The position numbers and the translations under genes are program-made. Source: a virus. From it: a stretch of 5,445 nt of DNA. The stretch spans positions 1 through 5,445 of the IMG/VR virus record IMGVR_UViG_3300022758_000011; one strand, written 5' to 3'. Shown here piece after piece: positions 1-5,445 of the stretch. The first letter of the stretch is position 1; each line of letters opens with the position of its first letter. The notes under the pieces are model-generated. The model saw only the letters and a list, made by a program, of their open reading frames with translations, was not told the origin of the DNA and made no database searches.

Positions 1-127
1 GCGGGTTTAAATCCAATACTCGCATATCAGCAAGGCGGAGCAAGCACACCGGGCGGAGCACAGGGCTCAATCGGGCAAAGCTCGATCAGTGCGCCAAGCG
101 TCGGAACGCAGTCATCCAGTATGCCGA
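1..127. repeat. Terminal direct repeat, copy 1 (identical to 5319-5445); a circular-genome overlap
   Basis: A base-by-base read shows 1-127 equals 5319-5445 exactly. The VP2 reading frame runs through the junction without interruption. The 127-nt length fits a k=127 de Bruijn assembler overlap (inference). Confidence 0.95.
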
Positions 128-354
128 CAATCTCCGGCACAGTAGCAAACTACAGCAAGACAAAAGCCGAAAGCTGGTCATGGACAGACTCGCACGGAGA
201 GCAACATAGTAGCGGCTACAACAGCTATCAAACGGACTTTCCGGACTTAAGTCAGTGGTTCAACCAAAACAGCAACAGCGGCAAACAAACCGCAACAAGT
301 AGCAAGAGAGATAAAGACGGCTTCGGCGGAAGCAGAGGAGGCAGTTTTAAATGA
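1..354 (+). CDS. VP2: VP2 DNA pilot / minor capsid protein, C-terminal part (wraps from 4869-5318; full protein 267 aa)
   Basis: Position 1 is codon position 1 of the frame opened at ATG 4869 ([19 protein letters not shown]...). The frame runs in phase into track ORF 121-354 and stops at TGA 352-354, overlapping the VP4 ATG as ATGA. The Gly/Ser/Gln-rich tail is typical of gokushovirus VP2. Confidence 0.9.
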   Translation, partial: AGLNPILAYQQGGASTPGGAQGSIGQSSISAPSVGTQSSSMPTISGTVANYSKTKAESWSWTDSHGEQHSSGYNSYQTDFPDLSQWFNQNSNSGKQTATSSKRDKDGFGGSRGGSFK

Positions 355-1373
355 GTTGTGCAAGACCACTAATAAGAGTATACAATCCAAACGACCACAA
401 TATAACGGGGTCCATCATGACGCTGGAAACGTACCGCGAAAGGGCGCACAATCCAACAGCAACGTATGAAAGCATTGCGTACAGGACAGACGTGATGTTA
501 CTGCCATGTGGCAAATGTCTGGGATGTAGACTCAGACAACGGCAGGATTGGGAAACAAGAATGCTGATGGAGTCAAAAACACTGTCACCAGTATGGTTTT
601 TAACTCTGACCTGGAATCAAGAGTACGTCCCGGGCATGGTAAGAGCAACCGGCGAGATCATAAGAGGTGCAACACACCAGTGGACGAACGGAGAAGCACC
701 GGAAGTCGTGCAAATACTACTGCAGGAAGACATGGTACGCTTTAACAAGAGACTACGCAAAAAGCAAGAAACGTCCGATAAATGGGGCTTAGACCTAAGA
801 TATTTTTATTGTGGCGAATACGGCGAAAACACGGGCAGACCACATCACCACGGCATTTATTACGGTTTGGAAATTCCAGATCTCAAGAAAAAAAGGGGTG
901 ATAATCCGTACTTCGAAAGCGAAGAGATAAACAAAATCTGGGGAATGGGTAACGTCATCATTGCAGAGGCATCACCAGAAACAATGGCTTATGTAGCAGG
1001 ATACGTAACAAAAAAGACATATGGAAACGACAACAAAAGATATAGGGAGCTAGGCTTAACACCGCCTTATTGTTGTATGTCGAGGAATCCGGGTTTAGGC
1101 TACGACTACTACACGAGCCACAAAAAACAGATGTACACAGATGATGGACTATATTTTAACGGCAAAAAAAGACCGATACCACGATACTTTGATAAAAAGT
1201 ACGAAAGTGAGCATCCGGAAGATCTGTGGGAAACGAAACGTAAAAGGCAGACAAGCGCAATCAACGCGCTAAAGCTCAAAATGAGCAATACAGGGCTGAC
1301 CATCGAACAAGAAGCAAAAGTGGAAGAAGAGACGAAACAGCAGAGGTTTAGAAAAGCCAGAGGGCTGTTATAG
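351..1373 (+). CDS. VP4: VP4 replication initiation protein (HUH rolling-circle endonuclease)
   Basis: This is a 340-aa ORF with SD GAGGAGG at 335-341, 9 nt upstream of the ATG. It has a Cys cluster CGKCLGC (507-527), motif 1 FLTLTW, an HUH-type motif RPHHHGIYY (His codons 843-851), and a two-tyrosine catalytic motif YVAGYVTKK (Tyr codons 990-992 and 1002-1004) spaced like phiX174 gpA YVAKYV. Confidence 0.95.
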   Translation: MSCARPLIRVYNPNDHNITGSIMTLETYRERAHNPTATYESIAYRTDVMLLPCGKCLGCRLRQRQDWETRMLMESKTLSPVWFLTLTWNQEYVPGMVRATGEIIRGATHQWTNGEAPEVVQILLQEDMVRFNKRLRKKQETSDKWGLDLRYFYCGEYGENTGRPHHHGIYYGLEIPDLKKKRGDNPYFESEEINKIWGMGNVIIAEASPETMAYVAGYVTKKTYGNDNKRYRELGLTPPYCCMSRNPGLGYDYYTSHKKQMYTDDGLYFNGKKRPIPRYFDKKYESEHPEDLWETKRKRQTSAINALKLKMSNTGLTIEQEAKVEEETKQQRFRKARGLL

Positions 1374-1378
1374 TGTCA

Positions 1379-1415
1379 GTGGGCCTAATCCTATCAAGAG
1401 AAGGATTAGGCCCAC
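1379..1415 (+). repeat. Perfect 14-bp inverted repeat (stem-loop A) directly after the VP4 stop
   Basis: GTGGGCCTAATCCT (1379-1392) pairs perfectly with AGGATTAGGCCCAC (1402-1415) around the 9-nt loop ATCAAGAGA. No T-run follows, so it is not a canonical intrinsic terminator. Confidence 0.85.
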
Positions 1416-1430
1416 ACCCAAGTTTCACAG

Positions 1431-1439
1431 CTATCCACG
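1431..1439 (+). promoter_or_regulatory. Isolated DnaA-box-like 9-mer CTATCCACG (7/9 to TTATCCACA)
   Basis: This is a direct read. It lies between stem-loops A and B, in the opposite orientation to the downstream TGTGGAAAA boxes. It could be a chance match. Confidence 0.2.
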
Positions 1440-1466
1440 GCTAATTAAAAGCATCATAAAACAAAG

Positions 1467-1499
1467 AAGGGGTCTCCTGTCGCCACGGGAGACCCCTTT
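1467..1499 (+). terminator. GC-rich stem-loop B, candidate intrinsic terminator for the VP2-VP4 transcript
   Basis: AAGGGGTCTCC (1467-1477) pairs with GGAGACCCCTT (1488-1498). Two more pairs form after a T/G mismatch, closing a 4-nt loop CGCC. An A-rich run precedes it, but the trailing T-run is only TTT, so it is weak as a terminator. Confidence 0.45.
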
Positions 1500-1502
1500 C
1501 GT

Positions 1503-1524
1503 GTACGCCCCTAGTAGGGGCTAC
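1503..1524 (+). repeat. Stem-loop C (6-bp GC stem plus a 3-bp outer stem with one bulge)
   Basis: GCCCCT (1507-1512) pairs with AGGGGC (1516-1521) around the loop AGT. Outer GTA (1503-1505) pairs with TAC (1522-1524), with C1506 bulged. It abuts stem-loop B. Confidence 0.5.
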
Positions 1525-1559
1525 CGAGGTACGAGACAAATCATAGGTTCAATTACGAT

Positions 1560-1601
1560 CACGCGCACGCACGCGCGAAACGCGCACGCACGCACGTGTA
1601 T
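1560..1601. repeat. Two alternating purine-pyrimidine (CG/CA) tracts containing a 14-nt direct repeat ACGCGCACGCACGC
   Basis: Strict Pu/Py alternation holds over 1560-1577 (18 nt) and 1580-1601 (22 nt). ACGCGCACGCACGC occurs at 1561-1574 and 1580-1593. There is a central GCGCG-AAA-CGCGC mini-palindrome and a CACGTG palindrome at 1593-1598. Confidence 0.85.
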
Positions 1602-1610
1602 TTGCAAACA

Positions 1611-1633
1611 TCATCTATTATATATAACTTGTT
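1611..1633. other. AT-rich element with the 10-bp perfect palindrome TTATATATAA (1618-1627); candidate unwinding element
   Basis: The sequence TCATCTATTATATATAACTTGTT is read directly. It is the most AT-rich short patch of the region and sits immediately 5' of the TAG-trinucleotide run. It contains AACTTG at 1626-1631. Confidence 0.35.
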
Positions 1634-1634
1634 G

Positions 1635-1649
1635 TAGTAGTAGTGGTAG
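1635..1649 (+). repeat. Trinucleotide run TAG-TAG-TAG-TGG-TAG (DnaA-trio-like)
   Basis: This is a direct read. It is separated by GCAC (1650-1653) from TGTGGAAAA (1654-1662). The published DnaA-trio is 3'-GAT-5', which reads 5'-TAG-3' on that strand, and it lies between a DnaA box and an AT-rich region. Confidence 0.35.
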
Positions 1650-1653
1650 GCAC

Positions 1654-1828
1654 TGTGGAAAAGTTGAAAACGATAATGATTCTTCGTTATCACGTGAAAA
1701 TTAAGAATTATTCGCAGTTGAAAACTTTGTTGAAAACTTGTTGAAATGTTGAAACACTTTAGCAGACTAAAATCTATTGCGTATAACGATGTTGAAAAGT
1801 ATGTGGAAAATGTTGAAACTGTTGAAAA
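1654..1828 (+). repeat. Same-orientation iteron array: TGTGGAAAA x2 plus (T)GTTGAAA(A/C/T) x8 (DnaA-box-like 9-mers)
   Basis: TGTGGAAAA occurs at 1654-1662 and 1802-1810. GTTGAAA starts at 1663, 1717, 1729, 1740, 1748, 1791, 1812 and 1821, with a degenerate GTGAAAA at 1694. Spacings are 8-12 nt, and 1802-1828 is three abutting 9-mers. I found no GTTGAAA elsewhere in the window by eye. All copies are on the + strand. Confidence 0.85.
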
Positions 1829-1856
1829 CTTAAGAAAACCGCGCCTGCAGCGGGCA

Positions 1857-1915
1857 AACCGTTCCGAAGCCGTCAACGCTTACGCGTTGCCACCTTCGAA
1901 GCGGTTAAAATTTTT
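1857..1915 (+). terminator. Long imperfect hairpin followed by AAAATTTTT; candidate terminator or insulator just upstream of the promoter
   Basis: The lower stem 1857-1869 / 1894-1906 has 13 positions: 11 Watson-Crick pairs, 1 G-T and 1 mismatch. Above an internal loop, the upper stem CAACGC (1874-1879) / GCGTTG (1884-1889) closes on the TTAC loop. A T5 run follows at 1911-1915. Confidence 0.5.
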
Positions 1916-1924
1916 ACGAAAAAC

Positions 1925-1952
1925 TTGAAAATAAACAAAAAAATGATATAAT
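1925..1952 (+). promoter_or_regulatory. Sigma70/SigA-type promoter with extended -10: TTGAAA - 16 nt - TGaTATAAT
   Basis: The -35 is TTGAAA (1925-1930). The TG is at 1944-1945 and the consensus -10 TATAAT at 1947-1952. The upstream flank (1907-1923) is A/T-rich. It lies about 35 nt upstream of the strongest SD in the genome (AAGGAGG, 1973-1979). Confidence 0.75.
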
Positions 1953-1985
1953 CAAATAAAGAAAACCCAAAGAAGGAGGTAAACA

Positions 1986-2192
1986 ATGGACAACCACGCA
2001 TACTACCAGCTATACAAAGGATACAGAGGACCAAAAACAGAGGATGAATATGAATACACCATCAAAAAGCTTTACAGACAGCTCAAAAAAGCGTATACTT
2101 TAGATGAGGCGAAAGCCATCATTGACGAAATCTACAAATACAAAGGCCAAAAGGCAGAAATGGAGCTGAACAAATGGCAATCATCAGTGTGA
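1986..2192 (+). CDS. Hypothetical 68-aa tyrosine-rich, charged protein (ORFan); first gene after the promoter
   Basis: SD AAGGAGG (1973-1979) lies 6 nt upstream of the ATG. The protein has 10 Tyr in 68 aa, is Lys/Glu-rich with predicted helical character, and has no hydrophobic segment. I recognise no family for it. Confidence 0.7.
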   Translation: MDNHAYYQLYKGYRGPKTEDEYEYTIKKLYRQLKKAYTLDEAKAIIDEIYKYKGQKAEMELNKWQSSV

Positions 2193-2293
2193 AAGAAGTC
2201 AAGAACGCCATCAAAATCATGATGGAGATCCTGGAAAAGCTGGATGCAATTTACCACGCACTACACGACAAGGAGGACGAAAGCAATGGCTAA
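2174..2293 (+). CDS. Possible 39-aa small protein (amphipathic helix), not in the ORF track
   Basis: ATG 2174 has GGAG (2162-2165) 8 nt upstream. The product is MAIISVKEVKNAIKIMMEILEKLDAIYHALHDKEDESNG. The start overlaps the end of the previous ORF, and the stop TAA 2291-2293 overlaps the next ATG (ATGGCTAA), which fits a translational-coupling chain. It is short, so uncertain. Confidence 0.4.
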   Translation: MAIISVKEVKNAIKIMMEILEKLDAIYHALHDKEDESNG

Positions 2294-2405
2294 ACGTACC
2301 AAGATGACCAGCAGTAAGGACAAAAAAGTCTTTACCCAGACGGCGAAGAAAACCAAAGCCGTCAACGTAAGTCCGAAGAACATGAGAGGAGGCACAAGAC
2401 TGTAA
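2286..2405 (+). CDS. Small highly basic DNA-binding/packaging protein (phiX174 J-like; gokushovirus ORF8-like), not in the ORF track
   Basis: AGGAGG (2271-2276) lies 9 nt upstream of ATG 2286. The product is MAKRTKMTSSKDKKVFTQTAKKTKAVNVSPKNMRGGTRL, with 12 of 39 residues Lys/Arg. The ...F(T)xTA(K)xT...N...P.MRGG.RL pattern matches my recollection of gokushovirus ORF8 peptides. Confidence 0.85.
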   Translation: MAKRTKMTSSKDKKVFTQTAKKTKAVNVSPKNMRGGTRL

Positions 2406-2647
2406 TGCTCAAACGTTATTATTCAATCTACGACAAGGTCTCCAAGTCCTACAGCGGACTTTTCGAGCAGCAGAACGACGCTGTTGCAAGCAGACTCTTT
2501 GAGAGCCAGCGGAAGAACAAAGACAGCTTTATCAGCATGAAGCCGGAAGACTTCGGGCTGTACTACATCTGCACCATGGAGGACGAAACCGGCCAGATTA
2601 TCGATAACACCAAAATGCTGGTGTGTGAGGGCAAGCCCAATGAGTGA
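2405..2647 (+). CDS. VP5: VP5-like small conserved non-structural protein (80 aa)
   Basis: The ATG overlaps the preceding TAA as TAATG. The pattern YSIYD..(K).Y...F...ND..A.R.F......PEDF.LYYI...D.ETGQI matches the small VP5/ORF5-type protein found next to VP3 in gokushoviruses. The family assignment is from memory, not a search. Confidence 0.8.
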   Translation: MLKRYYSIYDKVSKSYSGLFEQQNDAVASRLFESQRKNKDSFISMKPEDFGLYYICTMEDETGQIIDNTKMLVCEGKPNE

Positions 2648-3116
2648 GTTCAGAAGCGCATACAGCGGCCACGTGAGACATACGAGTCCAACCGGGAACG
2701 GACACGAGCCCGAATACGAGTACAAAGTAACCGAAACCGGCAGAGAGTTGGTAAAAACCGGCGAAACAGACATCTATGCACTCATCCAGAGCCGTCTCGA
2801 TGAAACCAAAATCGAAAACATCATCAAAAGAGCAACCTACGATCCGGCGGCGCTGGGCAGCCAGGAATGGCAGAACAGTGCACAGATGGTAGACATCACC
2901 GACGTGCCGACGGACTACCACACATGGTACAACCGCATAGAGGACGCAAAGAAGCAGTTTGAAGCGCTGCCCATCGAAGTCAAAAACAAGTGGGACAACG
3001 ATGTGGAAAAATACATCATGGCCTATGGAACCCAAGAGTGGGCAGACAAAATGGGCATAGCAAAACAGAAAGCCGAAGCGGAAAAACCGGCTGAAAAAAG
3101 TGAGGTGAAAGAATGA
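2640..3116 (+). CDS. VP3: VP3 internal scaffolding protein (158 aa from ATG 2640; the track's GTG 2625 start is less likely)
   Basis: GAGGG (2627-2631) lies 8 nt upstream of ATG 2640, which overlaps the upstream stop (ATGAGTGA). The C-terminal AKKQFEALPIEVKNKWDNDVEKYI resembles the conserved F..LP..(V/I)(R/K)..(F/W).N(D)... block of gokushovirus VP3. The stop overlaps the VP1 ATG as ATGA. Confidence 0.9.
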   Translation: MSEFRSAYSGHVRHTSPTGNGHEPEYEYKVTETGRELVKTGETDIYALIQSRLDETKIENIIKRATYDPAALGSQEWQNSAQMVDITDVPTDYHTWYNRIEDAKKQFEALPIEVKNKWDNDVEKYIMAYGTQEWADKMGIAKQKAEAEKPAEKSEVKE

Positions 3117-4765
3117 ACCGCAACAGTGAATACAACTTTGCACAGAATCCGCAGGTCGGAGTAAGCCGCAGCCGATTCCAACGCAACAGTGACAACAAAA
3201 CCACCTTTAATACCGGCGATCTCATCCCGATCTATCTGGATGAGGTGTTGCCGGGCGATACGCACCAAATCGACGTTGCCTGTGTCATGCGAATGGCGAC
3301 ACCCATCTTTCCTGTGATGGACAACGCCTTCTGCGACTTCTATTTCTTCTTCGTGCCTAACCGCTTGCTCTGGGAACATTGGAAGGAGTTCATGGGCGAG
3401 AACAAAGAAACCGCATGGACGCCCAAAACAGAATACAGCATACCGCAGGTGACGGCACCAAAAGGCGGATGGGCTGAGGGTACGCTAGCAGACTATCTGG
3501 GTCTGCCTACCAAAGTCGAGGGAATCAGCGTGAGCGCTCTGCCGGGCCGAGCCTATGGCCTTATCTACAACGAGTGGTTTCGAAACCAAAACGTCACACA
3601 GCCGACTCTCGTAGAGGTGACGGACGCGACCACGACCGGAAAAAACGACGGCAGTAATACCAACGACAGCGCAATCACGTTGGCAAAGCCTCTTAAGGCG
3701 GCAAAGGTGTTCGACTACTACACCGGGGCGCTGCCAGAACCTCAGAAAGGCGAGCCAATTACAATCCCGATAACGGGGAGCGCGCCAATCGGATTATATA
3801 ACGCCGCCACAGGAGACGTGACAACCAATTCAGCGAAGATGAAGGAAATCTTCGCTGATGCAGGGCTTGTCGCAACAAATGGGACATATCAAGCGAGTTA
3901 CTGGGATCCGGGTGACGGGCCAACAGCAAACCAAGGCTTAGCGGTGGGAAATACAACCGGCAGCATCTACAGGGGCGTAAGCCTCGGCGCAGACCTATCA
4001 AGCGTAAATGCAACAACCATCAACCAGCTGCGACAGGCATTCCAGATCCAGAAACTGTTGGAAAAAGACGCACGCGGCGGCACGAGATACCGCGAGGTAT
4101 TGCGTGAGCACTTTGGAGTTATCTCACCCGACAGCCGAATGCAAATTCCGGAGTATCTGGGCGGCTACAGACTGCCTATCAACGTGTCACAGGTTATCCA
4201 GACTTCTTCGACCGACAACACAAGCCCGCTGGGCAACACGGCGGCGCTGAGTGTGACCACGATGAACAAACCTATGTTTACCAAGTCCTTCACGGAACAC
4301 GGCTTTATCATGGGGCTCGCAGTTGTCCGTACTGACCAGACGTACCAGCAGGGCATCGACCGCATGTGGAGTCGTAAAGGCCGGTACGACTACTATTGGC
4401 CGGTACTGGCGAACATCGGTGAGCAAGCAATTCTAAACAAAGAGATCTATGCAGAAGGAAACCCAAATGACGACAAGGCATTTGGATACCAAGAAGCATG
4501 GGCCGATTACAGGTACAAGCCAAGCAAAGTAACGGGCCTGTTCAGGAGCAACGCAACGCAAAGCCTCGATGCATGGCACTATGCACAAGACTACAAATCC
4601 CTGCCATTCCTCGGAACGCAATGGATGGAGCAGGGCGACACCGAAATGAAGCGGACGTTAGCGGTGCAGAACCAGCCGGACTTTATCGCTGACTTCTACT
4701 TTATGAACAAAACAACGCGATGCATGCCGGTCTACAGTATTCCGGGACTTATCGACCATCATTAA
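3113..4765 (+). CDS. VP1: VP1 major capsid protein (F-like jelly-roll), 550 aa
   Basis: SD GAGGTG lies at 3102-3107. The N-terminal NPQVGVSRSRFQRNSDNKTTFNTGDLIPIYLDEVLPGDT closely mirrors the Chlamydia-phage/gokushovirus VP1 signature (KTTFDAGxLIPIxxDEVLPGDT). The size is typical. A variable Gly/Thr/Asn-rich insertion at about 3750-4010 sits where the gokushovirus three-fold protrusion loop lies. Confidence 0.97.
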   Translation: MNRNSEYNFAQNPQVGVSRSRFQRNSDNKTTFNTGDLIPIYLDEVLPGDTHQIDVACVMRMATPIFPVMDNAFCDFYFFFVPNRLLWEHWKEFMGENKETAWTPKTEYSIPQVTAPKGGWAEGTLADYLGLPTKVEGISVSALPGRAYGLIYNEWFRNQNVTQPTLVEVTDATTTGKNDGSNTNDSAITLAKPLKAAKVFDYYTGALPEPQKGEPITIPITGSAPIGLYNAATGDVTTNSAKMKEIFADAGLVATNGTYQASYWDPGDGPTANQGLAVGNTTGSIYRGVSLGADLSSVNATTINQLRQAFQIQKLLEKDARGGTRYREVLREHFGVISPDSRMQIPEYLGGYRLPINVSQVIQTSSTDNTSPLGNTAALSVTTMNKPMFTKSFTEHGFIMGLAVVRTDQTYQQGIDRMWSRKGRYDYYWPVLANIGEQAILNKEIYAEGNPNDDKAFGYQEAWADYRYKPSKVTGLFRSNATQSLDAWHYAQDYKSLPFLGTQWMEQGDTEMKRTLAVQNQPDFIADFYFMNKTTRCMPVYSIPGLIDHH

Positions 4766-4800
4766 AACCAGCAAAATGACCAAAAAACCATAACACAAAG

Positions 4801-4824
4801 GCAAGTTATTTGTCACTAACTTGC
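4801..4824 (+). repeat. Stem-loop downstream of VP1 (7-bp stem, 10-nt loop)
   Basis: GCAAGTT (4801-4807) pairs with AACTTGC (4818-4824). Confidence 0.5.
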
Positions 4825-4839
4825 TGCAGAAAGGAGGAC

Positions 4840-4863
4840 GCCGGGGCAAAACCCGGCTGTTTT
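4840..4863 (+). terminator. GC hairpin plus T-run after VP1: candidate leaky intrinsic terminator lying between the VP2 SD and the VP2 ATG
   Basis: GCCGGG (4840-4845) pairs with CCCGGC (4852-4857) around the loop GCAAAA and is followed by TGTTTT (4858-4863). AGGAGG (4832-4837) lies immediately 5' of the stem, and the VP2 ATG is at 4869. Confidence 0.55.
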
Positions 4864-4868
4864 AGTAT

Positions 4869-5445
4869 ATGTCAATTTTAGCAGCGTTAGCAACAGGCGC
4901 AAAATTACTGGGTGGCGTGAGCACACTCATAAACGCCGGAACGGGCATATTTAACGCGCTCAAAGGCACATCCGGCAGCGGAGCAACAAGCTCAAGCGGA
5001 TACCAGACAAGCCAAGGTGCAAGCGGGTCAACAATGACCGGTGAAAGTGGCGTAAATGTTGATCAAACGAAAGAACTCGCCAAATACTTTTTGGGGCAAA
5101 GCCAGCAAGCGCAGGGAATGCAGAGTCAGCAAAACGATAAGAACAGCCTCTTGGCTCTGGGCTTAAACACTCTGGGAGCTATCCAGCAGGGCGTTTATAA
5201 CCGTATCCAACAGGATGCAGCCATGTCTTATAACTCCGCAGAAGCGGCGGCTAACAGGGCATGGCAAGAACGTATGAGTAACACGAGCTACCAAAGAGCA
5301 ATGAACGATATGAAAAAAGCGGGTTTAAATCCAATACTCGCATATCAGCAAGGCGGAGCAAGCACACCGGGCGGAGCACAGGGCTCAATCGGGCAAAGCT
5401 CGATCAGTGCGCCAAGCGTCGGAACGCAGTCATCCAGTATGCCGA
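4869..5445 (+). CDS. VP2: VP2 DNA pilot / minor capsid protein, N-terminal part (open to the window end; continues at 1-354 on the circle)
   Basis: ATG 4869 is the first start after the in-frame TAG at 4863-4865. The N-terminus is hydrophobic ([28 protein letters not shown]). The block [26 protein letters not shown] is the conserved VP2 signature of gokushoviruses. There is no stop before the window end, which is why the ORF track misses it. Confidence 0.9.
5319..5445. repeat. Terminal direct repeat, copy 2 (identical to 1-127)
   Basis: Exact 127-nt identity with the window start. Confidence 0.95.

Follow-up and report, generated by a model that had tools for sequence, protein, structure and literature searches.

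A putative chromosomal-type DnaA module, probably captured from an Oscillospirales host, beside the rolling-circle initiator gene of a gokushovirus

The DNA analyzed here comprises positions 1 to 5,445 of the IMG/VR virus record IMGVR_UViG_3300022758_000011 (5,445 nucleotides [nt], hereafter the window). It represents a circular gokushovirus genome of 5,318 nt plus a 127-nt assembly overlap, since the two ends of the window (1-127 and 5319-5445) are identical. Immediately downstream of the gene for VP4, the rolling-circle initiator, lies a non-coding region of 612 nt (1374-1985), equivalent to 11.5% of the 5,318 nt. The original prediction had drawn attention to the length of this region and had described it as a string of discrete elements; the length was confirmed, and each of the listed elements was found at or near its proposed position. 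The iterons, trinucleotide repeats and AT palindrome of that description are parts of one unit, at positions 1599-1829, which is composed of DnaA boxes, a DnaA-trio array and an AT-rich DNA-unwinding element (DUE). The identity of these elements, their layout, their conservation and their likeness to host origins are matters of observation. As to function, which is judged here from sequence, we consider it reasonably likely that the unit is an oriC-type DnaA module tuned to an Oscillospirales host, and we regard the 612-nt region as a whole, with moderate confidence, as a replication-control region of the phage.

The unit at 1599-1829 contains the following features:
1599-1628, unstranded: AT-rich DUE with a GC content of 0.20; its core, ATCTATTATATATAAC at 1613-1628, has a GC content of 0.12
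1629-1649, plus strand: DnaA-trio array, TTG TTG TAG TAG TAG TGG TAG
1650-1653, plus strand: GC cluster, GCAC, between the trios and the first box
1654-1671, plus strand: DnaA-box cluster A, TGTGGAAAA and GTTGAAAAC, abutting the trios and GC cluster
1716-1755, plus strand: DnaA-box cluster B, four boxes starting at 1717, 1729, 1740 and 1748
1790-1829, plus strand: DnaA-box cluster C, four boxes starting at 1791, 1803 (perfect), 1812 and 1821

Ten boxes of the form tGT[T/G]GAAAa are thus distributed among three clusters between 1655 and 1827, i.e., ten GT[T/G]GAAA words in 175 nt. The window contains 11 such words in total, compared with 1.6 expected, and none of 200 shuffled sequences reached that number. 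With the pattern TTWTNCACA and at most one mismatch, seven matches (two of them perfect) were detected within 1654-1828, versus 11 in the remaining 5.3 kilobases (kb); the box TGTGGAAAA of cluster A is a perfect TTWTNCACA on the other strand. A DnaA-box cluster was defined as three or more TTWTNCACA boxes, with at most one mismatch each, less than 100 base pairs (bp) apart. Such clustering was found, together with a trio array accompanied by its GC cluster and adjacent box, and an AT-rich stretch on the far side of the trios. The core of the DUE is an AT-rich palindrome. GC content is at its lowest in the part of the genome that holds the element, which forms no stable structure when single-stranded.

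A DnaA-trio element has been defined as a GC cluster followed by more than three 3'-[G/A]A[T/A]-5' repeats (PMC7561715; PMC10797057), and the order of elements in the basal unwinding system is boxes, GC cluster, trios and DUE (PMC7561715; PMC6669920; PMC10797057). The layout of the core in the window agrees with the published definition, with four canonical trios (5'-TAG-3', equivalent to 3'-GAT-5') within 1635-1649, such that cluster A, the trios and the DUE together resemble a basal unwinding system. The boxes are oriented relative to the trios as in four bacterial origins described below (L019, L056, L084 and L123) and in the C. difficile sequence (PMC7561715). Neither dnaA nor dnaN is present in the window, where the module is flanked by VP4 and a small open reading frame (ORF), which marks it as an oriC-like module carried by a phage and not as a chromosomal origin. 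A lone perfect DnaA box, TTTTCCACA, occurs on the minus strand at 3002-3010, inside VP3 and far from the array.

The occurrence of the same boxes in bacteria was analyzed by scanning one genome per species (185,579 species) for three closely spaced GTTGAAA words. Among the 120 matches listed, same-box arrays were present in contigs of Oscillospiraceae, Ruminococcus and Negativibacillus, and none of the loci carried phage proteins like those of the window. In five of these bacterial loci (L019, L056, L084, L096 and L123) the array is located between dnaA and dnaN, the spacer that constitutes the unwinding half of the Firmicutes chromosomal origin. The flanking genes of L056, L084 and L123 were recognized by NCBIfam models (E = 1e-139 to 1e-149 for DnaA, and 1e-75 to 1e-92 for DnaN), and those beside the arrays of L019 and L096 by tblastn. 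Four of the five origins (all except L096) display an AT-rich stretch, TAGTAGTAGTAG, GGGGT and two successive boxes, which is the order seen at 1613-1671 of the window. In L096, which was not picked up by the filter for a TAG run followed by a box, a (TAG)6 run is situated 3' of an AT-rich stretch, and there are separate box clusters.

The details of the box itself are also shared. In matrices derived from 1,173 phage boxes and 66 oriC boxes, the T/G proportions at position 4 are 80/20 and 83/17, respectively, while T occupies position -1 in 87% of the former and 83% of the latter; the 3' flanks agree as well. When a profile of 138 phage modules was aligned to the bacterial origins, the match ran collinearly over the trios and all three box clusters; the E-values (4e-17 for L056 and 3e-13 for L123, with further alignments to L084, L019 and L096) are inflated by repeats and composition bias. 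Every aligned phage module, like the Oscillospirales oriCs, has an AT-rich patch at the position of the DUE, and the canonical box TGTGGATAA appears at homologous cluster B positions in the phage relatives L004-L006 and L014. Because the box variant, the layout, the box matrices and the collinear profile all match, the unit at 1599-1829 is taken to be of the oriC type, and it was probably captured from an Oscillospirales host. Two of the functions that the original prediction had put forward for the region, namely an origin and a module taken over from a host replicon, have therefore gained ground: the sequence of the boxes in the core, their order and their orientation agree with the Oscillospirales dnaA-dnaN origin. 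A Firmicutes host is in keeping with the strong Shine-Dalgarno sites of the phage genes. Matches to the box pattern outside the Oscillospirales (Bacteroidota, Verrucomicrobia, Lentisphaera and others) were discarded, as none of them lies beside dnaA or dnaN.

The same comparison bears on the notion that the repeats are phage-specific iterons, bound by VP4 or by a small VP5-type DNA-binding protein, which organizes the rolling-circle origin in the way known from geminiviruses and circoviruses, where iterons adjoin the nick site. The resemblance to oriC would then be coincidental or convergent. The array invariably adjoins VP4, on one side or the other, near a hairpin that carries a nick motif, and an 80-amino-acid ORF of the phage (2405-2647) matches a PHROGs family annotated as DNA-binding protein. 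However, the same word, with the same T/G ratio and the same flanks, fills the bacterial dnaA-dnaN spacers, the canonical DnaA box TGTGGATAA stands at homologous positions in some of the phage relatives, and the trios, GC cluster and DUE form a DnaA-specific arrangement (PMC7561715). Moreover, the boxes remain unchanged while VP4 diverges to 33% identity, and we consider phage-specific iterons quite improbable.

Recognition by Spo0A was also weighed. Many Oscillospirales form spores, and the word TGTTGAA is only one position removed from the 0A box TGTCGAA, such that Spo0A could silence or trap the phage in sporulating hosts, after the model of the Bacillus phage phi29. Against this, GTCGAA is absent from the 15 commonest of 1,425 GTNGA-centered words in the 138 modules; position 4 is T (80%) or G (20%), which departs from the 0A-box consensus. 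Spo0A would leave the trios and DUE unexplained, and the same words in dnaA-dnaN spacers are most simply interpreted as DnaA boxes. The probability assigned to this explanation is accordingly very small.

Clusters of the same box were also observed in Oscillospiraceae and Ruminococcus contigs upstream of a conserved small ORF (M..KG..K.I.E...YFEKA..F), at ~940-1010 of L034, ~3800-3930 of L043 and ~2915-2945 of L062. This ORF may represent a DnaA-regulated gene outside oriC.

The nearest GenBank relatives of the phage are fecal gokushoviruses of human, pig and dog, with 82-86% identity. A BLASTN search with the 612 nt, as had been proposed, returned 47 GenBank phage records, all of them Microviridae, and in the most distant megablast matches 1614-1829 was the sole matching segment of the whole genome. 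The spacers of the relatives are equally long, yet they are related and constrained in sequence, and hence do not represent unconstrained filler. Together with two pattern scans of IMG/VR, which yielded at least 120 microvirus contigs with the module, the GenBank search provided a set of at least 138 distinct gokushovirus modules. Six non-microvirus IMG/VR matches to the trio pattern were dismissed as chance occurrences in Ser/Thr-rich coding repeats that lack boxes.

The expectation that this much structured non-coding DNA implies a function is supported by the comparison, in which few parts of the genome are as well conserved between diverged relatives as the core. The 15 relatives compared share the same three clusters of 2, 4 and 3-4 boxes. 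Column conservation in the 138 modules is ~0.9-1.0 for boxes and trios and 0.4-0.7 for spacers, the trio values being in part inflated by the retrieval of 120 of the modules with a pattern that contains part of the trio array. Modules retrieved by BLAST or with a box-only pattern likewise all contain the array. Each of the 138 modules has 4-6 canonical trios, with the first box at a distance of 25-26 nt in 127 of them. Clusters A and B are spaced 53-54 nt apart in 113 of 137 modules despite variation in the spacer sequence; for B and C, the spacing is 44-45 nt in 87 modules, with 19 others at 42-43 nt (43 nt in the window). Such fixed inter-cluster spacing suggests an ordered complex.

The module is always located beside VP4: downstream and in the orientation of the window in 97 genomes, downstream and inverted in 5, and inverted just upstream in 25, the last forming a clade at ~33% VP4 identity. 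The occurrence of both orientations argues for a double-strand protein-binding module, since a single-strand signal, an RNA or a coding sequence would not tolerate inversion. Among the module-bearing genomes, VP1 has diverged to 45% identity and VP4 to 33%. In the closest relative, L002 (KT264799), and in L337, clusters B and C have been lost, while the DUE, the trios and two boxes are kept; these three components may therefore constitute a minimal unwinding unit. Behind the remaining minimal module of L002, at 3540-3585, an apparent inserted gene was noted.

The distribution of the module was determined in a sample picked by VP1 alone, consisting of 40 close and 40 distant relatives. The module was present in 36-37 of the 40 close relatives, the three without it being short contigs, versus only 1 of the 40 distant ones, and the median genome length was 5,460 nt and 4,669 nt, respectively. 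As nearly all of the close relatives and just one distant genome carry it, the module is an accessory: a lineage-specific, costly and maintained addition outside the basic microvirus kit.

These patterns of conservation are pertinent to two further explanations. According to the first, host DnaA is bound by the array and no replication is started. As a sponge, the multicopy replicative form would titrate DnaA away from the host origin and stop host initiation; as a sensor, the array would couple the promoter at 1925-1952 to the host DnaA-ATP level, in the manner of DnaA-box clusters and datA. Each genome copy carries ten boxes, the array is located 95 nt upstream of the strongest promoter in the window, and DnaA-box clusters outside oriC occur in the same bacteria (L034, L043 and L062); in B. 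subtilis, such clusters are reportedly known regulators. For a sponge or sensor, however, the trios, the GC cluster and the AT-rich element would be superfluous, and yet they are the best conserved parts and precisely those that the closest relative retains after the loss of clusters B and C. In addition, the array is inverted or moved away from the promoter in 30 genomes, and the fixed spacing between clusters is suggestive of an ordered complex. We therefore judge a sponge or sensor unlikely.

According to the second, only the hairpins of the region are functional, as a single-strand origin and terminators, and the oriC-like stretch is a recent host passenger devoid of function. Microviruses need a hairpin signal for complementary-strand synthesis (PMC9865509), and the hairpins at 1379-1415, 1467-1498 and 1857-1906 are real, the last with covariation. 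In contrast, at least 138 distinct genomes have kept the stretch despite a divergence of VP1 down to 45% and of VP4 down to 33% identity, the conservation is specific to boxes and trios, with fixed spacing, and the cost amounts to ~15% of extra genome length in a size-limited capsid. It is the segment with hairpins 2 and 3 that is dispensable in close relatives. A functionless passenger is thus very improbable.

The first hairpin of the region is a candidate for the site at which VP4 acts:
1366-1415, minus strand: candidate rolling-circle double-strand origin and VP4 nick site, containing hairpin 1379-1415 with a perfect 14-bp stem

The fold of hairpin 1379-1415 has a z-score of -7.5, and its stem is invariant in six close relatives. 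Read on the minus strand, the sequence is GTGGGCCTAATCCT-TCTCTTGAT-AGGATTAGGCCCAC-TGACACTATAA, in which TCTCTTGAT forms the loop and the 3' flank TGACACTATAA, at 1378-1368, overlaps the VP4 stop codon. The word CTTGATA occupies 1398-1392 of this strand, with a predicted nick between G1395 and A1394. The annotated phiX174 replication origin reads CAACTTG and, across the nick, ATATTAATAACACTATAGACCAC, and it shares with the hairpin the 7-mer CTTGATA and the 8-mer ACACTATA. Both words fall within 1369-1398 of the minus strand, which is antisense to the genes; the full phiX174 origin 18-mer has no match within three mismatches. Because the two words are common to the phiX174 origin and the hairpin, the latter is probably the VP4 nick site, and a candidate for that of gokushoviruses.

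A comparable hairpin, combining a CTTGAT loop with a TGACAC-type flank, is a conserved feature of gokushoviruses (L365-L401 and Chp2). In Chp2 (L403, 2904-2941) and the relatives that lack the module, it is located on the sense strand, with a loop ending in ACTTGAT that is followed by (C)TGACACC or GTGATAGC. Under strict criteria, the hairpin was antisense in 77 of 77 module-bearing genomes and sense in 12 of 12 module-lacking ones (Fisher 4e-15), where the counts refer to genomes in which the hairpin was detected and the Fisher figure ignores phylogeny. The link between module and hairpin orientation may derive from a single ancestral event, and hence provides no independent support for functional coupling. 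Under the same strict criteria, no CTTGAT-loop hairpin was detected in phiMH2K and SpV4. If the hairpin is the nick site, the module-bearing phages may package the strand complementary to their mRNAs, because it is inverted in all of the module-bearing genomes in which it was detected.

An alternative phiX-like nick site, AACTTG at 1626-1631 on the junction of DUE and trios, was rejected. The AAC portion varies among relatives (AAC, AAT, AAG, TAC and CAC), TTGTTGTAG and the TAG runs are absent from 39 module-lacking relatives, and the first hairpin offers a much better nick candidate.

With regard to mechanism, it appears fairly probable that host DnaA is recruited to open the replicative-form DNA of the phage; its binding, the unwinding and the downstream step are what we infer from the arrangement described above. 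Host DnaA-ATP would bind the ten boxes on the double-stranded replicative form. Starting at the two boxes of cluster A, DnaA would extend past the GC cluster and along one strand of the TAG trios, and the adjacent AT-rich element would then melt. The opening may serve either or both of two ends. In option (a), the host helicase would be loaded and the host replisome would carry out theta copying before, or without, the action of VP4, resulting in early amplification or plasmid-like carriage. In option (b), the CTTGATA hairpin (1379-1415, minus strand) would be exposed in single-stranded form, whereupon VP4 would nick it and rolling-circle synthesis would start. The flanking hairpins would perhaps act as terminators or priming sites, and the strong promoter would drive the downstream genes.

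The VP4 rolling-circle initiator has been retained alongside the module. A more far-reaching interpretation, which we put forward only tentatively and regard as doubtful, holds that the clade fused a host-type DnaA origin to its rolling-circle origin and thereby gained a second, host-controlled mode of replication, with an integrase-free carrier state akin to an oriC minichromosome, and that inversion of the nick hairpin led to packaging of the complementary strand, which would make these phages the first "negative-sense" microviruses. Homologues of VP4 were found only on contigs of up to 6.4 kb, none of them longer than a phage genome, which is consistent with a carrier state. The idea of a prophage or of an attP or dif site was abandoned, as no microvirus genes were present on bacterial contigs among the 120 loci listed.

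In addition to the inflated profile E-values and trio conservation mentioned above, several observations weigh against an oriC-type function of the module. The identification of tGTTGAAAa as the Oscillospirales DnaA box is itself deduced from the location of the word in dnaA-dnaN spacers. Most boxes deviate from TTWTNCACA by one mismatch, and the position concerned is invariant in E. coli. Only half of the bipartite Firmicutes origin has a counterpart in the module, and in C. difficile the dnaA-dnaN half showed no melting in vitro by itself (PMC7561715). The majority of other gokushoviruses, among them Chp2, replicate in the absence of the module, which is hence dispensable for basic microvirus replication. 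Option (b) in particular is weakened by the geometry of the window, in which ~200 nt separate the nick hairpin from the DUE, and by 4-5 genomes in which the DUE faces away from the hairpin. The module is flipped between the L007, L015, L002 and L012 types, yet in each of them the DUE faces the hairpin at a distance of 8-15 nt.

Among known systems, the module recalls B. subtilis incC and C. difficile oriC2, with which it shares, arranged and oriented alike, box clusters, two boxes at a GC cluster, at least four 3'-GAT-5' trios and an AT-rich DUE. Unlike a Firmicutes origin, it is found in a 5.3-kb single-stranded DNA phage, beside a rolling-circle rep gene instead of dnaA, and it comprises one half only. 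The phage versions further differ in the TTGTTG that precedes the TAG run, in a purine/pyrimidine tract by the DUE and in their occurrence in either orientation.

Host DnaA boxes beside the sites of a replicon's own initiator are known from P1 oriR, F, pSC101, RK2 and R6K. The phage resembles such theta plasmids and phages in being a mobile replicon with DnaA boxes by an AT-rich region, an initiator gene of its own and, as proposed here, a dependence on the host initiator. In theta replicons, however, one to a few boxes assist the plasmid Rep protein on its own iterons, whereas the phage would possess a whole chromosomal-type unwinding unit, trios included, together with an HUH nickase initiator. 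M13-oriC chimeras are man-made and oriC minichromosomes are laboratory constructs; in contrast to the former, the combination described here is natural and belongs to a conserved phage lineage.

The candidate nick element resembles origins of the phiX174/pC194 type in that CTTGATA and, 11 nt further 3', ACACTATA are identical to words of the 30-nt phiX174 origin; VP4 is a homologue of protein A. It differs from phiX174 in the distance between the two words (6 nt in phiX174) and in the placement of the nick word in a hairpin loop, and from both phiX174 and Chp2 in its location on the strand complementary to the genes. Hairpins in a microvirus intergenic region also call to mind primosome assembly signals, such as the n'/PriA site of phiX174 and the A-site of the ABC primosome, a hairpin that contains a DnaA box. 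A DnaA-box hairpin is formed in five relatives, where an inverted box is paired with the last box of cluster C; it is absent from the window. Unlike primosome signals, the box arrays are direct repeats that would be single-stranded in the virion strand, and the module occurs in both orientations. Finally, dense DnaA boxes outside a chromosomal origin are a feature of E. coli datA and the B. subtilis clusters, but loci of the datA type have neither trios nor a DUE, both of which are the best-conserved parts of the phage module.

DnaA-dependent origins are well known, as are DnaA boxes in the theta origins of plasmids and phages. Full-text literature searches on Microviridae or gokushoviruses in connection with DnaA boxes, oriC, iterons or origins turned up no description of the module. 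What appears to be new is the presence of a putatively complete chromosomal-type unwinding unit, including trios, in a large clade of rolling-circle single-stranded DNA phages, beside a candidate nick site. Replication by a phage nickase together with elongation factors of the host has its textbook example in the Microviridae. If the proposed reading is true, a major gut lineage also uses the host initiation machinery, and this could explain the years-long persistence of non-integrating microviruses in individual gut communities. The module would moreover serve as a built-in host label, in that its unusual box variant and its layout point to the Oscillospirales, for an abundant group that has no cultured host, and the matching of phage origin mimics to bacterial oriCs could be extended to other phages. 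As a natural minimal "basal unwinding system" of ~75-230 bp, available in hundreds of variants, it would provide a tool for origin research, while the CTTGAT-loop hairpin supplies a concrete candidate for the gokushovirus nick site.

The remaining features of the 612-nt region flank the module on either side:
1416-1598, unstranded: variable insert between the nick hairpin and the DUE
1560-1598, unstranded: GC-rich alternating purine/pyrimidine tract, Z-DNA-prone
1843-1906, unstranded: structured element consisting of a small hairpin (1843-1855) and a long hairpin (1857-1906), followed by AAAATTTTT
1925-1952, plus strand: sigma-70-type promoter, TTGAAA-16-TGaTATAAT, with an 11/12 match and an extended -10, the best in the window
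1973-1979, plus strand: Shine-Dalgarno site AAGGAGG, before the ATG at 1986 of the next gene

The variable insert contains a 14-bp hairpin at 1467-1498 and a second hairpin at 1507-1521 (joint fold z = -5.5). L007, L015 and L002 lack the entire insert, and L001 and L003 have a diverged version that still contains hairpins; positions 1416-1598 are dispensable, given that they are missing in close relatives. Two inverted, degenerate DnaA-box-like words at 1421-1438 are 72% complementary to boxes of cluster C, and the predicted single-strand fold pairs this segment with 1803-1820, which would close the whole module into a loop. Purine/pyrimidine tracts measuring 12 nt or more were present no further than 70 nt from the trios in 90 of the 138 phage modules, versus 0.02 expected, and in none of the five bacterial oriCs. 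The tract could act as a supercoil sink or as a boundary beside the DUE. It was discounted as a hairpin, since its fold is no better than that of shuffled sequence (z = +1.1).

The single-sequence fold of 1843-1906 is weak (z = -1.9), and the consensus fold of seven relatives contains 24 pairs, five of which have changed on both sides yet are still paired. This element is a candidate for a terminator or insulator between module and promoter, or for a single-strand priming site. The scan of the region with a consensus terminator pattern called no plus-strand hairpin and made two weak minus-strand calls (1859-1843 and 1851-1838); hairpin 1467-1498 is followed only by TTTC, and hairpin 1857-1906 by AAAATTTTT. 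At the position of the promoter, the relatives carry TTGACA-16/17-TAAAAT in an otherwise different sequence, such that position is conserved and sequence is not. Transcription control, another of the functions initially envisaged for the region, is thereby upheld only for the promoter and the possible terminators at the edges. A likeness of 1908-1922 to the left arm of streptococcal difSL was set aside, as the stretch is not conserved in relatives.

All genes of the phage are encoded on the plus strand:
4869, across the circle junction, to 354, plus strand: VP2, lacking a Shine-Dalgarno site
351-1373, plus strand: VP4, rolling-circle initiator (Pfam REP_ORF2-G2P, PHROG 942)
1986-2647, plus strand: four small ORFs, including the 80-amino-acid ORF (2405-2647) with a match to a PHROGs family annotated as DNA-binding protein
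2640-3116, plus strand: VP3
3113-4765, plus strand: VP1

As had been stated, the genes elsewhere overlap by 1-19 nt or, at the VP1-VP2 junction, are separated by a 103-nt gap, and no ORF of the 612-nt region is preceded by a Shine-Dalgarno site, those of the plus strand being located at 1501-1704, 1643-1744 and 1746-1928. That the region encodes a small protein or a non-coding RNA, the latter having been among the options first considered, is extremely improbable. It contains ORFs of 60, 67 and 105 amino acids, and "hypothetical protein" features have been annotated over the arrays in GenBank relatives. However, these ORFs lack Shine-Dalgarno sites, neither the two longer plus-strand ORFs nor the 105-amino-acid minus-strand ORF matches a Pfam or PHROGs family, and a search of Rfam 15 with both strands of the whole window gave no match at E <= 1. 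Furthermore, conservation tracks the 9-nt boxes and not codons, and the module is found in either orientation relative to the genes and the transcribed strand.

In the GenBank records of the relatives, the region is either unannotated or covered by such "hypothetical protein" features, which are probably spurious ORFs. Features labeled "similar to hypothetical protein" were observed on or beside the module at 1294-1524 of L003, 1336-1569 of L006 and 1320-1529 of L010. Those of L006 and L010 cover the DnaA-box arrays, while that of L003 covers mainly the purine/pyrimidine tract, the DUE and the trios.

A peptidase M15 gene, likely encoding a cell-wall hydrolase, is located 3' of the module in L009 (2011-2403), L010 (2073-2462), L012 (3879-4280) and L013 (3729-4121); the window itself does not carry this gene. 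Between VP1 and VP2, a GC-rich hairpin at 4840-4857 followed by TGTTTTAG constitutes the best terminator-like site on the plus strand.

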